Assembly: GCA_045539335.1 (NCBI GenBank)
Contig: JAZQFD010000025.1
Location: 35,545 to 99,544 of the forward strand
DNA: 64,000 bases
DNA from: Eubacteriales bacterium
GTDB lineage: Bacteria; Bacillota; Clostridia; Oscillospirales; QAKW01
Direction of reading: 5' to 3'
Positions 201-56,160 of the stretch are shown here, in pieces (within the stretch, counting starts at the first letter, position 1; every line of letters starts with the position of its first letter). A model generated the notes under the pieces. The model was given only the letters and a program-made list of their open reading frames with translations. It had not been told where the DNA came from and did no database searches. Both the position numbers and the translations under genes were made by a program.

Positions 201-480
201 TGTGGCACCCTCCGTAAGGAAGGTGCCACAGTTATATTCGCCTTACGGCGAGTGATATTGCTTCGCAGTGATATGATGCTTCGCATCGTGATATTGTCCT
301 TCGGACAGTTTAAGAGGCGAATATAATATCACTTTTGCGTGAGCAAAAATATCACTTGACCGAAAGGTCAAATATAACTGTGAGATCTGTCTCACAATAT
401 CACTTATTTTAGTTCTGTTTTGAGATAGGTATTGTTTAAAAGTATATAACCCACTATAACACTTTCAACTGATGAAAGTG
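201..480. repeat. Multi-hairpin heptamer element, copy A (terminal hairpin, 4x GTKATAT, 4x ATATMAC, conserved tail)
   Basis: Hairpin TGTGGCACC..GGTGCCACA 201-230; heptamers at 231, 252, 268, 288 and complements at 326, 349, 372, 397, each separated by a short hairpin; tail 435-468 is 31/34 identical to the reverse complement of 52058-52091. Confidence 0.85.
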
Positions 481-491
481 TTTTTATTTAT

Positions 492-547
492 AAAAAACGA
501 TGGAAGACAACTTCCTTACGAAGTGTCTTCCATCGTACCTTCTTTTT
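492..547 (-). terminator. Probable intrinsic terminator of the rpmH-jag operon
   Basis: ACGATGGAAGAC...GTCTTCCATCGT hairpin with an A-run on its left (U-run on the minus strand), just downstream of the jag stop. Confidence 0.6.
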
Positions 548-25249: not shown

Positions 25250-25305
25250 AAAGAATCACGCTCCTTTTTTTAAAAGTATAGCATTTTATAAAGAGATATG
25301 CAATA

Positions 25306-25535
25306 GCCAAGAGTCCTAAAGGACACTTGGCAGCGATATAAATCCCTAACGGGATTTGCGATATACCTAATAGTGCGATATAAGGCGATGCCTTGCGATA
25401 TGCTCTCGACATCCTTGCCGCAGGCAAGGGATGTCGAACGCACAAAAAGGATTTATATCATATCTCGTTTACCGACAGGTAAACATATCGCATTTTACAA
25501 AGTAAAATATATCGTATTGCGAAGCAATATATCGC
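25306..25535. repeat. Multi-hairpin heptamer element, copy B (GCGATAT/ATATCGC variant)
   Basis: Terminal hairpin GCCAAG..CTTGGC, 4x GCGATAT and 4x ATATC-type heptamers mostly separated by hairpins; long stem 25335-25345 / 25449-25459. Confidence 0.8.
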
Positions 25536-25585: not shown

Positions 25586-25614
25586 TTGACATTTTTTTGG
25601 TGGAGTGCTACACT
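25586..25614 (+). promoter_or_regulatory. SigA-type promoter of the cobalamin riboswitch leader
   Basis: TTGACA-17 bp-TACACT with TG extension. Confidence 0.65.
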
Positions 25615-25619
25615 TGGGA

Positions 25620-25775
25620 AGGAAACACGCCCAAGAACAAGGAAGTGGGGTGAGAATCCCCCGTGATCCCGTCGCCGTGTTTGGCAAGGAACTGCTCAAA
25701 AAACCACTGCCCGAAAGGGTGGGAAGGGGAGCGGAACCGCTTGAGCCATCAGCCGAAAGACTTCTCTTGGGATGT
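25620..25775 (+). ncRNA. Cobalamin riboswitch
   Basis: AAGGAA..GGTGAGAATCC..CCCG, CCACTG..GGGAAG and B12-box-like AGCCGAAAGAC; precedes B12-uptake-type genes. Confidence 0.85.
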
Positions 25776-25895
25776 CGGATCTGCTGTTACGATGAATAAC
25801 CGTTTTTTAGGGCCTCCTTTGGCAGAGAGGTGGGCCTTAAAAGATGAAAGAAGCGTATCCGAAGGGTTTCTAAAAAAAGAATAAGGAGAAAAAAG

Positions 25896-36208: not shown

Positions 36209-36306
36209 TCCAGCGGGATGCGAGATCTGCACGGCGAAGACTTCTTCTTCGTTCCAAAGACAACTCCCCGTTCTTCGGACACGTGACCCACAAATCTCTA
36301 CTCTGT
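36209..36306 (-). ncRNA. THF (tetrahydrofolate) riboswitch
   Basis: Minus strand reads CAGAGTAG..GTG..AACGGGGAGTTG..ACGAA..GCATCCCGCTG; its 3' end overlaps the folT RBS, suggesting translational control. Confidence 0.85.
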
Positions 36307-36323
36307 GTACGCAGCATATCATA

Positions 36324-47164: not shown

Positions 47165-48094
47165 ATGAAAACAGAACTGACGATCCTTACTCAAAATTTA
47201 AGAACCAGCGGCTCTCAGATCGGCCTGCGGGATGAACGCAAAAATTCCATCAGCAATTTGTATCGTCGCTCCCGTCGCTTCAAGGCGATGGTGCAGCGGT
47301 GGGACCCCGACGTGATCCTCAGCCAAGAGGCACAACTGGGTTGGATCGGTTTTTTTGAAGAAGATCCTTATTTTACCCGGCAGTATGAGATGCTTTGGAA
47401 ATGGCGGGGCCCCGAAGGGGTGATCGGCGGCAATCAATGTTGCCCCCTCTTTTTCAAAAAAGAAAAGTTTGTTCTTTTGGAAAGCGGCCATTTCTGGCTT
47501 TGCGATACCCCCCATCAGGCGGCGGTCTCCTATGAGGCAAGAGGGCCTTATGGGCGGATCGTTACCTGGGCCACCCTGCAGGATCGAAAAACCAAGCAGG
47601 TCTTTACCTGCTATAATGCCCATGTAGATGCCGGCGGGCTGACTCATGTGAAATCCATGAAGCAGTTTGCCCAGTTATTTGCCGCTTCTCCTGAAGGGAC
47701 CTATGCCATTGTGGGCGGAGACATTAATATTCTTTACAAAGATCAGCGGTACCATGAGTGTATCTGCTGGGACGAGATGATGGATCTGCAGGATATTGCC
47801 TGCAATATGGCTGAGGCAGGACTTTGCACCTTAGGAGGCTTGAACGGCACCTCCAATCGGGCATGGCAAACCTTGGAGATCGATGAAAATGCCGGTCACG
47901 GCCAGCAAAGAGACCACTTTTTTGCTCGCCATAACCCCCGCTTAGGGGTCACCTATTACGGCGTGGATTACAATCGCTATGAAGCCCCCGAGGCGGGGGT
48001 GGAATTGGGGCATATCTCCGATCACTATGGCGTGGTTGCTAAGGTGGTTTTAGAGGGAGATGATTATTCTGCCTATCAATTTCAGCGAAAATAA
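47165..48094 (+). CDS. EEP family protein 3 (no signal peptide, probably cytoplasmic)
   Basis: LTQNL, SQE, NAH, GDIN, RDH, SDH. Confidence 0.85.
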   Translation: MKTELTILTQNLRTSGSQIGLRDERKNSISNLYRRSRRFKAMVQRWDPDVILSQEAQLGWIGFFEEDPYFTRQYEMLWKWRGPEGVIGGNQCCPLFFKKEKFVLLESGHFWLCDTPHQAAVSYEARGPYGRIVTWATLQDRKTKQVFTCYNAHVDAGGLTHVKSMKQFAQLFAASPEGTYAIVGGDINILYKDQRYHECICWDEMMDLQDIACNMAEAGLCTLGGLNGTSNRAWQTLEIDENAGHGQQRDHFFARHNPRLGVTYYGVDYNRYEAPEAGVELGHISDHYGVVAKVVLEGDDYSAYQFQRK

Positions 48095-48108
48095 AAAGGA
48101 GAAAAGCT

Positions 48109-49464
48109 ATGACGATGAAGCGTTGGCTATGCTTCTTGCTGATCGCCGTTCTTTCCTTAGGGATGCTCAGCGGCTGTAAGGGCGCCGAGGAGGAAGATTT
48201 CGGCGTTGCCGATTCCATTGTGGAGGGCGATGAGAGCACCGATCCGAAAGACGATAAAGATCCTGAGGACGAAAAGGACGATCCTAAGGACGAGGATCCC
48301 AAAGAGGAGGATCCCAAGGACGAGGATCCGAAGGAGGACGAACCCAAAGAGGAGAATCCCAAAGACGAGGATCCCAAAGACGAGGATCCAAAGGAAGAGG
48401 ATCCCAAAGAGGAAACGCCTGCCGATCCCAATGAGGGAGAGGAAGACCTTCCTCCCATCACCAAGGAAAATAGCGGCGTTGCCATAACCATCCTGACCCA
48501 GAACCTGCGCACCTCCGGCACTCAGCGAGGGGAAAAGGCGGAGCGGGGGAGCGGCGACCATAACCTGTGGCATCGGTTCCGCCGCTTAAAGAGTCAGGTG
48601 CGGGAGTGGGAGCCCGATGTGATCATGACCCAAGAGGGCATGAGCGGGCATGTGAATCTCTTGACCACCGATCCTTATTTTGATCAGGTCTATGATATTG
48701 TGTGGAAAAATCGAGGCCCCAATAATGACGACAGCATTGTGGACGATCAGTCGGTGCCGGTGCTGTATAAGACCTCAAGATTTACTTTGGTAGACAGCGG
48801 CCATTTCTGGCTCAGCGAGACTCCCCATATTCCCTCCATCGGCTATGGTGCCACTGAGGAATATGCCCGTATCACCACTTGGGTGCGGTTAAAGGACAAG
48901 GCCACCGGCGTGGAGCTTTATGCCTATTCTGCCCATTTTGCCGTTACCGAGACCTTCCATATTCGGGCGATGGAGCAGTTTATGAACGCCTTTGATAAAT
49001 TGAAGAAGGGCACCTATGCCTTTGTGGCAGGCGATTTCAACATCCGCTATAAGAGCTTTGAATATGATTCTATGCTGGAATGGGATCGCATTATCGACCT
49101 GAAGGATATGGCCCTTAATATGCAGGCCGATGGTCTGGCTCAAGTAGAGGGCGATACCGGAACCGTTCATTCCCGCTACGATAAAAACGGCAAAGTGCAG
49201 GATGAGTGGGCCGAGGGCGAGCCCGATGTGGAGCCCTTTGGGGATCTTCGCCAGATCGACCATATTTTTGCCAAGCCCGATCCCCATATGGCGGTGGATT
49301 ATTGGAGTGTTATTTATAAGCAATATGGCTATGATGAGGGCGAAGAGTTTGTGAAAAACGGCTACCTTTCCGACCACTACGGCGTGGTGTGTAAGGTGCG
49401 GGTGGATACGCAGGTGGATTACTCCCGCTACCAGCATCAAAACCCCGATTCTCCGGCGTTGTAA
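48109..49464 (+). CDS. EEP family lipoprotein 4 with acidic repeat stalk
   Basis: Lipobox LSGC; QN, QE, GDFN, IDH, SDH. Confidence 0.85.
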   Translation: MTMKRWLCFLLIAVLSLGMLSGCKGAEEEDFGVADSIVEGDESTDPKDDKDPEDEKDDPKDEDPKEEDPKDEDPKEDEPKEENPKDEDPKDEDPKEEDPKEETPADPNEGEEDLPPITKENSGVAITILTQNLRTSGTQRGEKAERGSGDHNLWHRFRRLKSQVREWEPDVIMTQEGMSGHVNLLTTDPYFDQVYDIVWKNRGPNNDDSIVDDQSVPVLYKTSRFTLVDSGHFWLSETPHIPSIGYGATEEYARITTWVRLKDKATGVELYAYSAHFAVTETFHIRAMEQFMNAFDKLKKGTYAFVAGDFNIRYKSFEYDSMLEWDRIIDLKDMALNMQADGLAQVEGDTGTVHSRYDKNGKVQDEWAEGEPDVEPFGDLRQIDHIFAKPDPHMAVDYWSVIYKQYGYDEGEEFVKNGYLSDHYGVVCKVRVDTQVDYSRYQHQNPDSPAL

Positions 49465-49543
49465 AGACTCTTCGCTTGGACTCTTAAGCGGATGATTCCC
49501 GCTATTAGCATCAATATCGTGATTAAAAAACAGCGTGAGGATA

Positions 49544-49747
49544 GGCGTTGTACCCGTAAGGATACAACGCCAGTTTTATTCGCCTTGCGGCGAGTTATAT
49601 TGCTTCGCAGTTATATTCGGCTAAAAGCCGAGTGTTATTCGCTTTGCGAGTTTTATAGGCGAATAAAATATCACTAAAACCATTAGGTTTTAATATTACT
49701 TTTGATTTATCAAAAATATCACTGTGAGACTTGTCTCACAATAGCAC
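49544..49747. repeat. Multi-hairpin heptamer element, copy C
   Basis: Same order of parts as copy A; long stem TTTTATTCGCCT 49574-49585 / AGGCGAATAAAA 49657-49668; TGTGAGAC..GTCTCACA 49723-49740. Confidence 0.85.
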
Positions 49748-49777
49748 TATTAAAAAGTATTTTATTTTGAGGACAGT

Positions 49778-49813
49778 AAAAAAGCTGTGTAGAAATTTTC
49801 TACACAGCTTTTA
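49778..49813. terminator. Bidirectional terminator hairpin
   Basis: AAAAAGCTGTGTAGAA..TTCTACACAGCTTTT. Confidence 0.7.
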
Positions 49814-49910
49814 ATTATGTCTCATACCGTAACAAGCAGGGAAAATGTACGGCACATTTCCCAATCTTTAGGAGAACCTAAAACCCTTTTCTAAACAAAT
49901 ATCATCTATT

Positions 49911-49927
49911 CGATAAATTGGAATTTG
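49911..49927. repeat. 17-bp site CGATAAATTGGAATTTG (inverted partner of 50348-50364)
   Basis: Its reverse complement is 15/17 identical to 50348-50364; lies 5 bp beyond the GNAT stop. Confidence 0.7.
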
Positions 49928-49932
49928 CTGAT

Positions 49933-50335
49933 TTATGTCCATAGCGATGTTGTAAACATTGGCGAAGCATCTTTGCTTTTTTCAAAGCCACACGCTTCGT
50001 AAAACTGTAACTCATCATCATAAGCGACAACTACAATACGCATATAATCTTTATACTTTTCTTTTACCATACTTACAAGAGTTCTTCCGATCGTTTTGCC
50101 GTGATAATCAGGATCAACAAGAAGATAATGAACATGCATTCATTATTCCATCATCCATAACACATACCATTCCAACAAGTTTACTCCTATCCCAAGCAGA
50201 GTAAACCGTATTAAAATTTTTCATTGCAACCACAAGCTTATCGGGAAAATGTCCCGACGACCATTCAACAGATAAAAACAGTCTTTCTAAATCTTCTTGC
50301 TCAAAATTATGAATGTCTTTATATTCAATGTTCAT
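49933..50335 (-). pseudogene. GNAT family N-acetyltransferase, frameshifted
   Basis: ORFs 50114-50335 and 49933-50139 join as ..DDGIMNA(Y)VHYLLVDPDYHGKTIG..FYEACGF if 2 nt are restored near 50135; AT-rich. Confidence 0.8.
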
Positions 50336-50347
50336 ATTTTACCTCGT

Positions 50348-50364
50348 CAAATTCTTATTTATCG
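50348..50364. repeat. 17-bp site CAAATTCTTATTTATCG (inverted partner of 49911-49927)
   Basis: Lies between an extended -10 (TGCTATAAT, minus strand) and the GAGGT RBS of the GNAT gene. Confidence 0.7.
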
Positions 50365-50588
50365 GTTCGTTATATTATAGCACGACTTGACTAACAAAGA
50401 AAGGAAATATTAAAAACACCCATAGTTTTTTAAAAAACTATGGGTGTTTTCGTATTTTGTTGTACTGTCCCTTACTGTACGACTCTTACCCCTTGCGCTG
50501 TTTTTTTACCCTCCTCAACATATTTAACATACACATTATCGCCTCCATGCAAACAAAGGGCATTACCTAATCCAAAGCGCTGGTCGCC

Positions 50589-50735
50589 AATACAAATGAA
50601 TTGTATCGATCAAAACAAAATTCCGCTCTTTAATACAAATGAATTGTATCGATCAAAGCAAAGCTTTGTTCTTAATACAAATGAATTGTGTCGATCAAAA
50701 CAAAACTCTGCTCTTTAATACAAATGATTTGTGTC
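50589..50735. repeat. Tandem array of 4 palindromic ATACAA-N5-TTGTRT sites, 42-43 bp period
   Basis: AATACAAATGAWTTGTRTC at 50589, 50632, 50674, 50717 with related spacers. Confidence 0.9.
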
Positions 50736-50741
50736 GGAGGA

Positions 50742-50770
50742 TTGCGTTTTTGGGGGCGGCGGTGTATAAT
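50742..50770 (+). promoter_or_regulatory. SigA-type promoter of the XRE-lipoprotein operon
   Basis: TTGCGT-17 bp-TATAAT with TG extension; GGAGGT RBS at 50781. Confidence 0.6.
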
Positions 50771-50792
50771 GAAGAAAAAAGGAGGTGCTGAT

Positions 50793-51098
50793 ATGGCGGC
50801 AAAGATCTTCAGCAAACGGTTAAAACAATTGCGGCTTGAAAAAGGCGTCACTCAAAAACAAATGAGCCAAGACCTGCGGATGGCAGACAGCTATATTTAT
50901 AATATTGAAGCAGAATACGCCTATCCCTCCATGACTCAGTTTTTTGCCATTTGCGAGTATCTGGACATCTTGCCCTCCGATTTTTTGCAATTTGAGCCGG
51001 AGACTTCGGCTAAAGAGGATGAATTATTGGATGCCGTGAAGGGTTTTAGCAATGAGAAGATGGATCGGCTGATCTGCATAGCAAAGGAGTTGCAATAA
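50793..51098 (+). CDS. XRE family helix-turn-helix regulator
   Basis: RLKQLRLEKGVTQKQMS..YIYNIE..PS..ICEYL. Confidence 0.88.
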   Translation: MAAKIFSKRLKQLRLEKGVTQKQMSQDLRMADSYIYNIEAEYAYPSMTQFFAICEYLDILPSDFLQFEPETSAKEDELLDAVKGFSNEKMDRLICIAKELQ

Positions 51099-51986
51099 AT
51101 GAGAAAACTCTTCTGGGCACTGATCACGGTGCTTTTATTAACATCGGTGGGCGGGTGTGCGCCCAAGGGAAAGGAAGAAATTGCCCAAGCCGATTCGGTG
51201 GCAGAAGGGGAAGCCCTTTATGAAAAATTAAAATCGGAGCTGGAGTCCTCTCATTCCTTAACCGCTTTTTCAGAGGAGGCCACTCACCTGATCCCCACCC
51301 CCGAGTTGGACTTTCATAGCTGGGGGCAAGGAGGTTGGACCGACGGGGAATTCTATTATCAAGCCTTTGTGTGGCGGCATGATGAAAGCAACCAAGAAGA
51401 AAACAAGGTAACCATCGTTAAATTCGACCTTGCCAAGGATGAGGTGGTAAAGCAATCGGAGATCCTCCCTTTAAACCATTGCAATGATATTACCTACGAT
51501 TCCAAGCACAACCGCTTGATTTTGGTTCATAATAAGCCCAACTGGCGCAAGCTGACCTTTATGGATCCCGATACTTTAGAGGTGCTGGGCACCCATACCA
51601 TCGACGATCAGATCTTCGGCATGGACTATGATGCCGCCAATGATCGCTATTGCATCGGTATCAGCTCCGGCTATCCCACCTTTCGGGAACTGGACAGCGA
51701 CTTTTTTGCCACCGGTCAGATCCATAAAACCCTTTCGGAAAGCAATGAATTTGTGCGGCAGACGGTGGCTTGTACTAAGGATTTTATCTTCCATCTTTAC
51801 CACCTGCCCAGTTATATTTATGTTTACGATTGGGAGGGCAATTTTGTTACCAAAATCGATTTTATGGGCAAGGGCTATGAGCCGGAAAACCTCAGCGTGG
51901 TGGGAGATACCATCTATGTGTCGGTGAATGATGCCAAAAAGGCTGGCTGTCATATTATCGAATTGAAGGATTTTGTTCCCTTCTAA
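51099..51986 (+). CDS. Lipoprotein, possibly beta-propeller fold
   Basis: Lipobox VGGC; beta-rich repeats (QGGWTDG, HCNDITYD, EPENL); abuts the XRE stop. Confidence 0.7.
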   Translation: MRKLFWALITVLLLTSVGGCAPKGKEEIAQADSVAEGEALYEKLKSELESSHSLTAFSEEATHLIPTPELDFHSWGQGGWTDGEFYYQAFVWRHDESNQEENKVTIVKFDLAKDEVVKQSEILPLNHCNDITYDSKHNRLILVHNKPNWRKLTFMDPDTLEVLGTHTIDDQIFGMDYDAANDRYCIGISSGYPTFRELDSDFFATGQIHKTLSESNEFVRQTVACTKDFIFHLYHLPSYIYVYDWEGNFVTKIDFMGKGYEPENLSVVGDTIYVSVNDAKKAGCHIIELKDFVPF

Positions 51987-52045
51987 AAGAAAGGGGGACA
52001 CTCTGTAAAGAAGTGCTCTCCCTTCTTTCTTTTTACATAAAAATT

Positions 52046-52322
52046 GACACTTTCAAATTGAAAGTGTCATAGTGGGTTCCATACTTTTAAATTATACATC
52101 CAAAATGAATCGGGCGATATTGTGAGACGGGTCTCACAGCGATATTTTCTTTTGAAAAAGAAAGCGATATAAAAGCCTTTGGCTTTTGCGATATTATATT
52201 CGTGCTCTTTCGCACGGCGCAAGCCGTATATCGTGCGGTTTACCGCATATCGCAACGAATGTTATATCGTTCGGGCGAAGCACGAATATAGTTGTGGCAC
52301 CTTCCTTAAGGAAGGTGCCACA
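52046..52322. repeat. Multi-hairpin heptamer element, copy D (inverted relative to A)
   Basis: 4x GCGATAT from 52114, ATATCGY repeats, long stem 52195-52206 / 52279-52290, terminal TGTGGCACCTTCC..GGAAGGTGCCACA, tail shared with copy A. Confidence 0.85.
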
Positions 52323-52334
52323 AAGGGCGTCATT

Positions 52335-52667
52335 TTATTTTACTTTAAAGACCCGCAGGGGCTTGCCCTGCTTTTTGCAGTTTTCAATCACAAAGCGGGT
52401 GCCTCGGGACTCCCCGTCCCAAAAGGCCAGCACCTGATCGGCATAGTCGATAATGGTTAGGTTTCGCCTAAGAGGCGCTCCTCTGCCGAATTGCTCATAA
52501 TCGGGCAAAAATTCCGTCAGCTTCAGTCCGTGGGCTTGGGCGTAGCGGCGGGCGCATTGGTCGATGCCCCGGGCGCCGCCGGAGACGATCTCGGTAACCT
52601 CTTTGGGCAGATAGGGAGAAAAATCCTCTACCGAAAGACCCCGAGAGCCGATGATGGCCACTTTCAT
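52335..52667 (-). CDS. SLOG superfamily (YspA/DUF2493-like) protein
   Basis: IIGSR, IVSGGARGID, GAPLRRN, AFWDGESRGT. Confidence 0.8.
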   Translation of the reverse strand: MKVAIIGSRGLSVEDFSPYLPKEVTEIVSGGARGIDQCARRYAQAHGLKLTEFLPDYEQFGRGAPLRRNLTIIDYADQVLAFWDGESRGTRFVIENCKKQGKPLRVFKVK

Positions 52668-53782
52668 TTTTGGTCGCCTACCTTTAAGGTATAGTCGCCT
52701 AAAATGGTACCGTCGGCTTCATTGATCACCGCATGGATTTCGTTTTCCGAGATGGTATAGGCGGTTCCCGCCAGCGCCAAAGAGGCTTTTTTCAAGGGCT
52801 TACCGCCCACAATGATGGGGCAGAACTGACCCAATTGATCCAGCTCGCCGCCCTTTTCAAACAGACCCACCTTATGGGTGTGCCCCGCAATAAAGAGCTC
52901 CGGCTGAATATGCTCCCCGATCAGTTGGCACCACTCGGTATAGAGCTCCTGCTCAATGTCAAAGGGCGGGGGAGAAACATGGCTGAAGGGGGCGTGGCAG
53001 ACCACAAATTTATGCTGTACGCCGGGGGCGTTGTATTCCTCGTCGGCTCGGGCGATCACCTCTTTGATAAATTCCGTTTGCGCCAAGCGGAAGGGATGGT
53101 AGCAGGAGGTATGGCCGTAGGCTTCATAAGAATCGTCCTTATCCTCGCCGCAATCCAGGCAGATGCCCCAAATGTCGCCCAAGCGGAAGGTATAATAGGT
53201 GCGACCCTCCCGATGGGGGCAGTATTCCCCGAAATGCTCCCCGTAGAAGCCTCGGGTATCGTGGTTTCCTCGGGTGAAGATGGAGGGCATCTCGCCCTTG
53301 CCCAAGGTGCCGGAAAGGCGCAGCATCTCTAAAAGATATTCCCGCTCGCCGCTATGATTGGGAATGTCGCCGTTTAAAATAAGGCCGTCGTATTGAGGCA
53401 TATGTCCTGCCGCCTCAATGGCCAGATCGATGCAATCATGCACATCGGAAAGATGATAAAACCGAGCGGTGCCCGAAGGGATGGGGCGGAAGGTGTAGGG
53501 AATCTCCACCGTATCCTCCGAAGGAGGATCATAGGGCGGCCGCTCCGGCATATGGCGGTAGCAAACGGTATAACCGCCGGCGGCATCCAGCTTTTCTTGG
53601 GGCACGTACACCCGATGCACCTTGCAATCGGTTTTCATTACGCCGGCAAATTGATCATAATAGGTCTCCTCACCCACCTTTACCCAAAAGAGGGTGGGCA
53701 CATCAAAGGGAACCATGATCTGATATTCCCGATCGAAAATATAAACAGTAGGGGGATAGAGCATATGATTCGGTGTGTTCAT
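52664..53782 (-). CDS. Calcineurin-like metallophosphoesterase
   Basis: SDVH, NGD, RGNHD, H, GHTH motifs. Confidence 0.88.
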   Translation of the reverse strand: MNTPNHMLYPPTVYIFDREYQIMVPFDVPTLFWVKVGEETYYDQFAGVMKTDCKVHRVYVPQEKLDAAGGYTVCYRHMPERPPYDPPSEDTVEIPYTFRPIPSGTARFYHLSDVHDCIDLAIEAAGHMPQYDGLILNGDIPNHSGEREYLLEMLRLSGTLGKGEMPSIFTRGNHDTRGFYGEHFGEYCPHREGRTYYTFRLGDIWGICLDCGEDKDDSYEAYGHTSCYHPFRLAQTEFIKEVIARADEEYNAPGVQHKFVVCHAPFSHVSPPPFDIEQELYTEWCQLIGEHIQPELFIAGHTHKVGLFEKGGELDQLGQFCPIIVGGKPLKKASLALAGTAYTISENEIHAVINEADGTILGDYTLKVGDQK

Positions 53783-53848
53783 AAAAAACTCCTTCTGCTT
53801 TAATGCGTGGCAGGCTCGACTCTCCACGCATTAAACAGTATACCACAC

Positions 53849-54820
53849 TCAGCCGAAAAAAGGAAGAAGCAAAAAGAGTTTTGTAAAGAAAAAGGCCAAA
53901 AGCCCGCAGGCGGGAAAGGTCAGCAGCCATGCAAGCGCCATGGAGCGGGCGATGGCGCCGTCCACTTTTCCTTGAGGGTGCCCCAAGGCGGCGCCCATCA
54001 TGGCGCAGGTCTTGGCATGAGTGGTACTGACGGGAAGCCCCTGCAGGGTGGAGAGCAAAAGGCTGGCCGCTCCCGCCAGATCGGCGGCAAAGCCCTCTTT
54101 GGGGGAAAGCTGCACCAGCTCATTGCCCACCTTTCGAATGATCCGCCCACCGCCGCAGAGAGTACCCATCCCCATAACGGCACTGCAAAGAACCATGGTG
54201 GCAGAAGGGATGGCCTCGCCGCTCACCACCAAAAGGGCGGCAAATTTGGGGGTGTCCTGAAGACCGTGGGCAAAGGCCATAAAGGCGGCGGCCACCCGTT
54301 GCCCCTTTTTCCAAAAGGCAGGGGAGGGGGTGCGCTTTTGAAAGTAGGCGGAGATGGCCCAGCCTCCCAAAAAGCCAAAGACCACCGAAAAAACCAGTCC
54401 CACCAAAACCTTTAAAAGGGCCACCGTGGAGATTCCGCCTGCATTCAGCGCCAAGGCGCCGCCCATCAGCGCCGCCATCAGCCCATGGCTTTCGCTGGTG
54501 GGGATGCCAAAGACCCATGCCGCCACCGCCCAAACCACCACCGCCAAAAGGCAGGCGGAAACGGCCACCGTCCCTCGGGTGTCGGCAGGAAAATTGCCCA
54601 AAGCCCCCATGGTTCTGGCCACCTGCTGACCCATGCTTAGGGCGGCAATGCCCCCTAAAAGGTTCATAAGGGTGGCCAGCCATACCCCTTTTTTCATGGA
54701 AAAGGCGCCGCTTCCGATGGCGGAGGCAATGGCGTTGGGAGCATCGGTCCAGCCGTTTACGAATAAAACCCCCAGCACCGCCCAGGTTTGGATCACGTTC
54801 CATAAATTCAATGAGATCAC
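53849..54820 (-). CDS. pit: Inorganic phosphate transporter (PiT family)
   Basis: NGWTDAPNAIA, PTSESH, AHGLQD, PVSTTH. Confidence 0.9.
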   Translation of the reverse strand: MISLNLWNVIQTWAVLGVLFVNGWTDAPNAIASAIGSGAFSMKKGVWLATLMNLLGGIAALSMGQQVARTMGALGNFPADTRGTVAVSACLLAVVVWAVAAWVFGIPTSESHGLMAALMGGALALNAGGISTVALLKVLVGLVFSVVFGFLGGWAISAYFQKRTPSPAFWKKGQRVAAAFMAFAHGLQDTPKFAALLVVSGEAIPSATMVLCSAVMGMGTLCGGGRIIRKVGNELVQLSPKEGFAADLAGAASLLLSTLQGLPVSTTHAKTCAMMGAALGHPQGKVDGAIARSMALAWLLTFPACGLLAFFFTKLFLLLPFFG

Positions 54821-56084: not shown

Positions 56085-56160
56085 GGTGGAGACAACTGGA
56101 ATTGAACCAGTGACCCCTTGCATGTCAAGCAAGTACTCTAACCAGCTGAGCTATGCCTCC
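56084..56160 (-). tRNA. tRNA-Val(GAC)
   Basis: GGAGGCATAGCTCAGCTGGTTAGAGTA-CTTGC-TTGACAT-GCAAG..GGTTCAATTCC..CTCCACCA; TTGACA-17-TAGAAT promoter upstream. Confidence 0.97.

Follow-up and report, generated by a model that had tools for sequence, protein, structure and literature searches.

We found that the heptamer-hairpin array near the start of the window (the whole stretch of 64,000 nucleotides that was analysed) belongs to a longer unit, copy A, which is very probably a mobile element. Copy A is a gene-less element of 330 bp (202-531) made of an att-like end, the array, a predicted MOBV-like origin of transfer (oriT) and a second att-like end. In our preferred reading, to which we assign a probability of roughly 0.6, this element sits in a terminator loop, depends on a recombinase acting in trans and on a borrowed relaxase, and carries an array that is bound as folded single-stranded DNA (ssDNA) by a PF05635 protein. 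We are highly confident that the element is mobile, given its boundaries, its 2-bp repeat, its target, an empty site, the ends shared with other elements, the covariation, the loops on opposite strands and the co-location with genes. Taken jointly with this, recombinase-mediated excision and insertion at terminator loops is about as certain.

Element boundaries and insertion in terminator loops

Copy A splits the loop of the jag terminator and has the dinucleotide AT at each side. The left arm of this host terminator and part of its loop, the target site (183-199), form an inverted repeat with 534-547, and the rebuilt site folds as a single hairpin. The left copy of the core dinucleotide is at 200-201; the right copy (532-533) and the right arm of the terminator together span 532-547. 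Both ends are att-like half-sites. The left one (202-229, plus strand) has a TAAGG core at 215-219, 13 bp inside, and the right one (498-531, minus strand) has its core at 514-518, in a hairpin that is terminator-like on the minus strand. The preliminary description had taken the left half-site for the terminal hairpin of the array. The hairpin is there, as a recombination end, and the unit extends beyond the array, to 531 in copy A, 50486 in copy C and 51993 in copy D.

Three other array loci lie in the window. Copy D (51993-52321, minus strand) is a 329-bp element of the copy A type, with TT on both sides and degraded terminator arms; neither it nor copy A has an ORF. Copy C (49544-50486, plus strand) is a 943-bp element with an array, a second cis module, frameshifted cargo ORFs and a right end. 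Counting its right core at 12 bp inside gives TA on both sides; at the offset of 13 the copy was scored as a miss. Copy B (25304-25535, plus strand) has a GCGATAT-type array and a hairpin resembling the left end; neither a matching right end nor terminator arms were found at this locus, which is decayed or atypical. The two short, overlapping ORFs of copy C (50335-49933, minus strand) resemble, by eye, one frameshifted acetyltransferase-like gene. A cobalamin riboswitch (25598-25783) lies directly behind copy B, and the window also contains a THF riboswitch (36209-36307) and a tRNA (56087-56160).

An inverted repeat that differs from locus to locus and includes an A-tract and a T-tract surrounds most copies. 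A TAAGG-like core lies 13 bp inside both ends, and the two bases just outside are identical on both sides. We examined 24 candidates in this genome: 16 with clear arms, four without a core by the rule of the script and four with weak arms. At the 13-bp offset the dinucleotides are identical in 13 of the 16 elements, versus 0 to 3 of 16 at ten other offsets and 58 of 240 across loci. All 16 have the dinucleotide inside the rebuilt terminator loop or at its edge; by eye, copy D and the copies at C31 and C37:12.2 kb show TT on either side. The 2-bp rule also holds in 21 of 22 complete elements from other genomes; the loci of this sample were retrieved through their end patterns, which biases it. 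Array-less palindromic mini-elements of about 280 bp follow the same end rule and also occupy terminator loops (G000:C29:300577-300860 and G000:C30:5613-5890, where G000 is this genome, and L164:1869-2147).

One contig provides direct evidence of presence-absence polymorphism, at a copy on contig C37 of this genome. There, a 7.3-kb strain contig of run X2, with 94-97% identity, lacks precisely 352 bp (350 + 2) and restores a terminator hairpin, while a gene-linked copy nearby is retained. Contigs of four runs aligned to 47500-54500 gave no joints across copies C or D, breaking at the repeats. No circle joint was present in the run contigs examined, and a metagenome scan gave no jag locus of the same species (26 loci, the best 79% over the full length). 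In the closest relatives, jag is followed by a plain terminator of different sequence. The orthologues in genome G005 of two element sites of G017 are at a contig end or rearranged. An opposite-strand joint in runs X2 and X6 (L168:9707 and 11805; G000:C37 at about 18.7-20.8 kb) suggests an inversion near the third C37 copy.

The jag terminator site is an insertion hotspot. In the relatives L052, L054, L040 and L048, a different repeat is wrapped around this terminator and forms tandem arrays; a remnant is found at about 548-566 of the window. Short tandem repeats lie behind jag in L044-L046.

The preliminary description had raised the idea of a REP/REPIN-like element, with HUH/Y1 transposases among the genes that might co-occur. 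A MITE or REPIN-like element whose DDE or HUH transposase makes a 2-bp target duplication would fit the inverted end motifs, the varied 2-bp repeats and the dispersed, multi-copy distribution. However, the terminal bases are unconserved (conservation is 0.57-0.6 at positions 1-4 and 0.90-0.96 at core positions 14-16), no transposase is found among the ORFs scanned inside the ends, and the Y1/HUH family gives 0 PF01797 matches in this genome, which is 94% complete. Moreover, the ends adjoin serine recombinase genes and belong to serine-recombinase elements. We consider this explanation very improbable.

A large serine recombinase is the likely mover

In gut Clostridia, varied cargo of 0.3-3.4 kb is found between these same ends, with the array present or absent. 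The end pattern is found in 47 of 301 genomes, versus 1 for the control, and its carriers include Acutalibacteraceae, Oscillospiraceae and Eubacteriales. In genome G046, a large serine recombinase with DUF4368 stops 88 nt before an end that is near-identical to the left hairpin of copy A. We examined 30 recombinase loci for adjoining ends. Those with at least 69% identity, the query included, have the copy A end type 86-94 nt past the stop in five cases out of five, with one more elsewhere. The five loci at 58-64% identity have an end score of 12 or less, and variant ends scoring 13-16 are found at 4 of 20 loci of 42-46% identity, one of which, a 45% homologue, bears the end type of the family of copy C. 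Neighbours at these loci include Mob_Pre, NikA and Relaxase, or TnpW, which is a Tn4451-like layout. Tn4451 is reported to recombine at identical 2-bp sequences (PMC5704250). DUF4368 is described as a mark of multi-targeting recombinases, present in 63% of one such clade, and the target motif of one member of the multi-targeting clade is A-rich, core, T-rich (PMC10083194).

No cognate recombinase was found in this genome (best identity 29%), and a match at E≤1e-100 is present in just 3 of the 17 genus members tested. We saw no recombinase-coding element with an array inside both ends. The copies look stranded here, or their helper unassembled. Overall, excision and insertion of the element likely depend on a TnpX-like large serine recombinase acting in trans, and the earlier suggestion of a non-autonomous mobile element is supported. 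Other recombinases were considered and rejected: three in tandem in this genome (G000:C10:468-5500) are large serine recombinases just 27-30% identical to the end-linked ones and unrelated to the ends, and those adjoining arrays in L205, L232 and L243 have tRNA-like att ends and are located outside the element ends.

Among the cargo carried between these ends are a methylase with an MjaI-type nuclease, an HNH protein and a MATE transporter (L280:2191-5348, L224, L283 and L331:985-2849). Arrays also occur outside these elements, after tRNA terminators and rlmD, and are therefore not required for mobility.

A predicted origin of transfer

A MOBV-type oriT is predicted at 441-481 on the minus strand. 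It consists of an inverted repeat (459-467/473-481) and, after it, a motif that agrees by eye with the minimal oriT reported for pMV158 (PMC3105389); the predicted nick lies between 450 and 449. A promoter-like site (468-441), directed into the array, overlaps it. The oriT-like module also recurs in array-less elements, and other element subtypes have different modules, one of which resembles, by eye, the DNA upstream of a NikA-Relaxase pair. Judging from these sequence resemblances, mobilisation through the predicted oriT by a borrowed relaxase is plausible.

The array is two-fold symmetric and its hairpins covary

All four array loci described previously are present, with the layout given for them. 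The full array is two-fold symmetric, its right half being an inverted second copy of the left one. In copy A, the left half (229-299, plus strand) has forward words, i.e., heptamers, at 231, 252, 268 and 288, and the right half (326-403, minus strand) has reverse words at 326, 349, 372 and 397. A long-range stem of 11-12 bp (232-243 with 315-326) is an alternative to the first small hairpin. In this 1.87-Mb genome, a profile built from the four loci identified 22 full-length copies (all with E≤2e-17), and the Rfam model added one on contig C11, which makes about 23; these numbers place the array far beyond chance.

To assess covariation we used an alignment of 40 distinct copies from this and related genomes, picked from 54 matches by score, length and redundancy. 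The aligned copies are kin, so that counts overstate their independence and the comparisons with shuffles are not probabilities. The seven local hairpins are 96.9% paired, with compensatory changes in 26 of 30 pairs, and their covariation score is 0.534, versus at most 0.103 in slid controls. Of 1178 hairpin cells, just 4 show one-sided (wobble-type) changes. In the long-range stem, pairing reaches 98% and 7 of the 11 pairs are compensatory. The hairpin array is real, and selection on structure, as proposed in the preliminary description, is supported. The accompanying idea of a ladder of four-way junctions is not supported: nested heptamer-heptamer pairing reaches 87.7%, versus 85.8% in shuffles, and at some positions up to 30 of the 40 copies are unpaired. 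Since this pairing is close to the shuffle level and many cells are unpaired, the heptamers behave as degenerate words, not as pairing partners. The same degeneracy limits the claim that the heptamer is coherent within each copy, the left half of copy C having no exact GTGATAT.

Eight more heptamer-hairpin arrays of this genome use other words and are missed, or barely matched, by the Gut-1 model of Rfam (C3:58289, C4:18056, C7:381, C40:15569, C29:148226, C29:199332, C33:9892 and C16:18759).

Half of the array is the Gut-1 motif

The left half of the array of copy A is Gut-1 (RF01706): positions 229-299 match the complete 77-position model with 67.3 bits (cut-off 50) and have three covarying hairpins between conserved words. 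There is a weaker, inverted Gut-1 match in the right half (316-380, minus strand, 35.5 bits). Copies C (41.6) and B (30.6) score under the cut-off of 50, and copy D is unlisted. The array had been thought to belong to no named family, with a strong Rfam match as the result that would remove its novelty. Such a match exists for one half only. Gut-1 matches occur in 29 of 41 related genomes, with 0-43 in each. The motif was described as a probable non-coding RNA found in human gut samples only (Weinberg et al. 2010, PMC2864571). In the literature searched, whose coverage is incomplete, we found no description of the doubled array, of its link with PF05635 or of terminator-loop targeting.

A function as folded DNA seems likelier than one as RNA

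The two halves of the array place loops of the form cGNAg or cGNNAg on opposite strands. In the 40-copy alignment, 111 of 160 left-half loops have this form on the minus strand and 0 on the plus strand; for the right half, it is 60 of 120 on the plus strand and 0 on the minus strand. In copy A, too, the left half has these loops on the minus strand and the right half has its stable loops on the plus strand. A looser parse, which covered 46 of 69 copies, agrees with this polarity, as do 7 of the 8 other-word arrays, one being uninformative. The genome background for such loops is 632 of 5095 and strand-even. Mini-hairpins of this kind are reported to be far more stable in DNA than in RNA, nuclease-resistant and poor binders of SSB, and to be found at priming sites (PMC13037366). 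Against a DNA form, computed DNA energies hardly separate the strands (23/40 and 25/40). With RNA energies, each half does better by about 5 kcal/mol on the strand opposite to these loops (38/40 and 39/40), probably because of G-U pairs supplied by the fixed words.

We weighed these data against a structured non-coding RNA, Gut-1 or its doubled form, whose transcription could start, for example, at the promoter-like site (468-441) and to which the four-helix-bundle ring of PF05635 would bind. Such an RNA would accord with the Rfam class and the original prediction, with the RNA energies that favour the Gut-1 strand of each half, with a promoter-like site aimed into the array, and with the report that PF05635 genes are located in intervening sequences of 23S rRNA that are processed and have heptamer repeats (PMC4990558). 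Yet the halves prefer opposite strands in both the RNA and the DNA readings, which is impossible for one transcript and goes against the single structured RNA envisaged before. In addition, the alignment has 0 UNCG loops, the left half has mostly triloops, wobble pairs are nearly absent, and the promoter-like site, of which 1.5 are expected by chance, belongs to one subtype only. We regard this alternative as quite unlikely. Because of the opposite strand preferences under either reading, a two-sided DNA site suits the array better than one transcript, and folded DNA seems to be its likelier working form. Recognition as folded ssDNA, also raised in the preliminary description, is probable.

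Arrays are linked to genes for a four-helix-bundle protein

Each of the four PF05635 genes of this genome sits behind an array, and each has a word of its own. A crude detector applied across the genus found arrays at 26 of 31 PF05635 loci, versus 7 of 40 controls, in line with the earlier idea that genes for small helical proteins might co-occur with the array. In 22 of these 26 loci the array is upstream and in 4 it flanks the gene; of the remaining five, three are misses and two are too short. When 25 genomes were crossed by hand, 20 of the 21 with a PF05635 gene had at least one Gut-1 match, and the four without the gene had 0, 0, 0 and 1. The closest solved structure is 2RLD, with five chains. 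According to PMC4990558, the family forms a homopentameric ring whose function is unknown, and in one species tandem heptamers lie close by. Co-variation between PF05635 clade and array word was judged by eye only and is confounded by linkage. We infer that the ring protein binds the words of the array. Half-arrays can flank the PF05635 gene (L064, L068, L083, L067 and L088), the heptamers of L067 and L088 being in tandem, with no hairpins.

The link with this gene also suggests a different role for the array in the same mobile element, that of a passenger: an operator or binding array, acting in supercoiled or cruciform double-stranded DNA, left behind when the four-helix-bundle gene was deleted and conferring no benefit. 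At G000:C31 the array is accompanied by the gene and the right module; the gene is absent at C38 and C29, where the ends and the module are the same. At several loci the -35 box of the PF05635 gene is immediately adjacent to the last word, and many elements with these ends have no array, only 2 of 11 large ones from other genomes carrying it. What speaks against a mere remnant is that gene-less copies dominate (21 of 23 here) and yet keep near-perfect compensated hairpins, and that the array is present in 10 of 11 elements under 500 bp, in a biased sample from other genomes. We hold the passenger explanation to be unlikely, if less so than the RNA.

A model for transfer and its implications

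We favour an array that serves the element during transfer. The recombinase would circularise the element by joining its ends at the core dinucleotide, nicking near 450/449 would fall to a MOBV relaxase, and a helper would transfer one strand. The exposed strand, whichever it is, would present one half-array, with heptamer words spaced by nuclease-resistant mini-hairpins. The PF05635 ring would bind these words and either protect the strand or help prime the second one, so that minimal elements bearing the array would establish better. The end hairpins would substitute for the terminator broken by insertion. Within this scenario, the role of the array as a folded-ssDNA landing site for the ring protein, protecting or priming the transferred strand, is tentative, and we put it somewhat below even odds. 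To the same degree, Gut-1 might be half of a two-sided folded-DNA device, with a protein-landing or priming site for each strand, read by the four-helix-bundle ring; it would let 330-bp elements survive conjugative transfer and reach dozens of terminator loops per genome through a recombinase targeting any intrinsic terminator.

An orphan "RNA" motif that is 15 years old thereby gains a genomic home, twice its former size and a testable case for a function as DNA, and the Gut-1 array has a candidate partner (PF05635) and a candidate mover. For a recombinase inserting into terminator loops, near-neutral landing sites are plentiful. This could explain the spread of small cargo, i.e., restriction-modification genes, regulators and transporters, in gut Clostridia, and the enzyme might serve as an integration tool. 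If the two-sided DNA device is true, two orphans would share one function, and these elements would stand for a minimal class of conjugative hitchhikers.

Comparison with known systems

REP/REPIN-RAYT systems and MITEs are short, intergenic, multi-copy, hairpin-rich and non-autonomous, as are the elements studied here. Unlike REP/REPIN-RAYT, our elements have no Y1 transposase that we could find, their att-like ends are tied to serine recombinases, and they include an oriT-like module.

The Tn4451/Tn4453-type IMEs are reported to encode TnpX, TnpW and a MobV relaxase (PMC5704250). They and the DUF4368 recombinases (PMC5704250, PMC10083194) resemble our system in having identical 2-bp cores at both ends and many targets. 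Further likenesses to the Tn4451 type are the cognate recombinase of relatives, with Resolvase, Recombinase, Zn ribbon and DUF4368, the presence of TnpW and Mob_Pre in relatives, and the MOBV-like predicted oriT. In contrast to that type, copy A is gene-less, measures 0.3 kb and bears an array; there are at least 15 copies per genome, versus 2-6 in PMC5704250; and the targets are terminator loops, whereas the word terminator occurs 0 times in the main texts of PMC5704250 and PMC10083194. Copy A thus has the identical 2-bp core and the ends common to recombinase-coding elements, but neither it nor copy D has a recombinase and relaxase of its own. It is a non-autonomous derivative of a Tn4451-type IME, not a full member.

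The iOriT elements (bioRxiv 10.64898/2026.01.13.699239) are likewise integrated, have an oriT without a relaxase and hitch on helpers. As described there, they come from six Gram-negative species and mostly encode an integrase, with serine recombinases in fewer than 1%, whereas our elements also lack an integrase and are far smaller. With the 23S rRNA intervening sequences that contain S23p/PF05635 genes (PMC4990558), our arrays have in common the protein family and the tandem heptamers adjoining the gene; they differ in lying outside rRNA, in the covarying hairpins that space the heptamers and in that most copies are gene-less. Finally, catalogued Gut-1 and our arrays share the word-hairpin repeat and an origin in gut bacteria, but here Gut-1 is just one half of a two-fold symmetric array, whose copies are numerous, lie within mobile elements, adjoin PF05635 genes and have their stable DNA-type loops on the strand opposite to the Rfam model.
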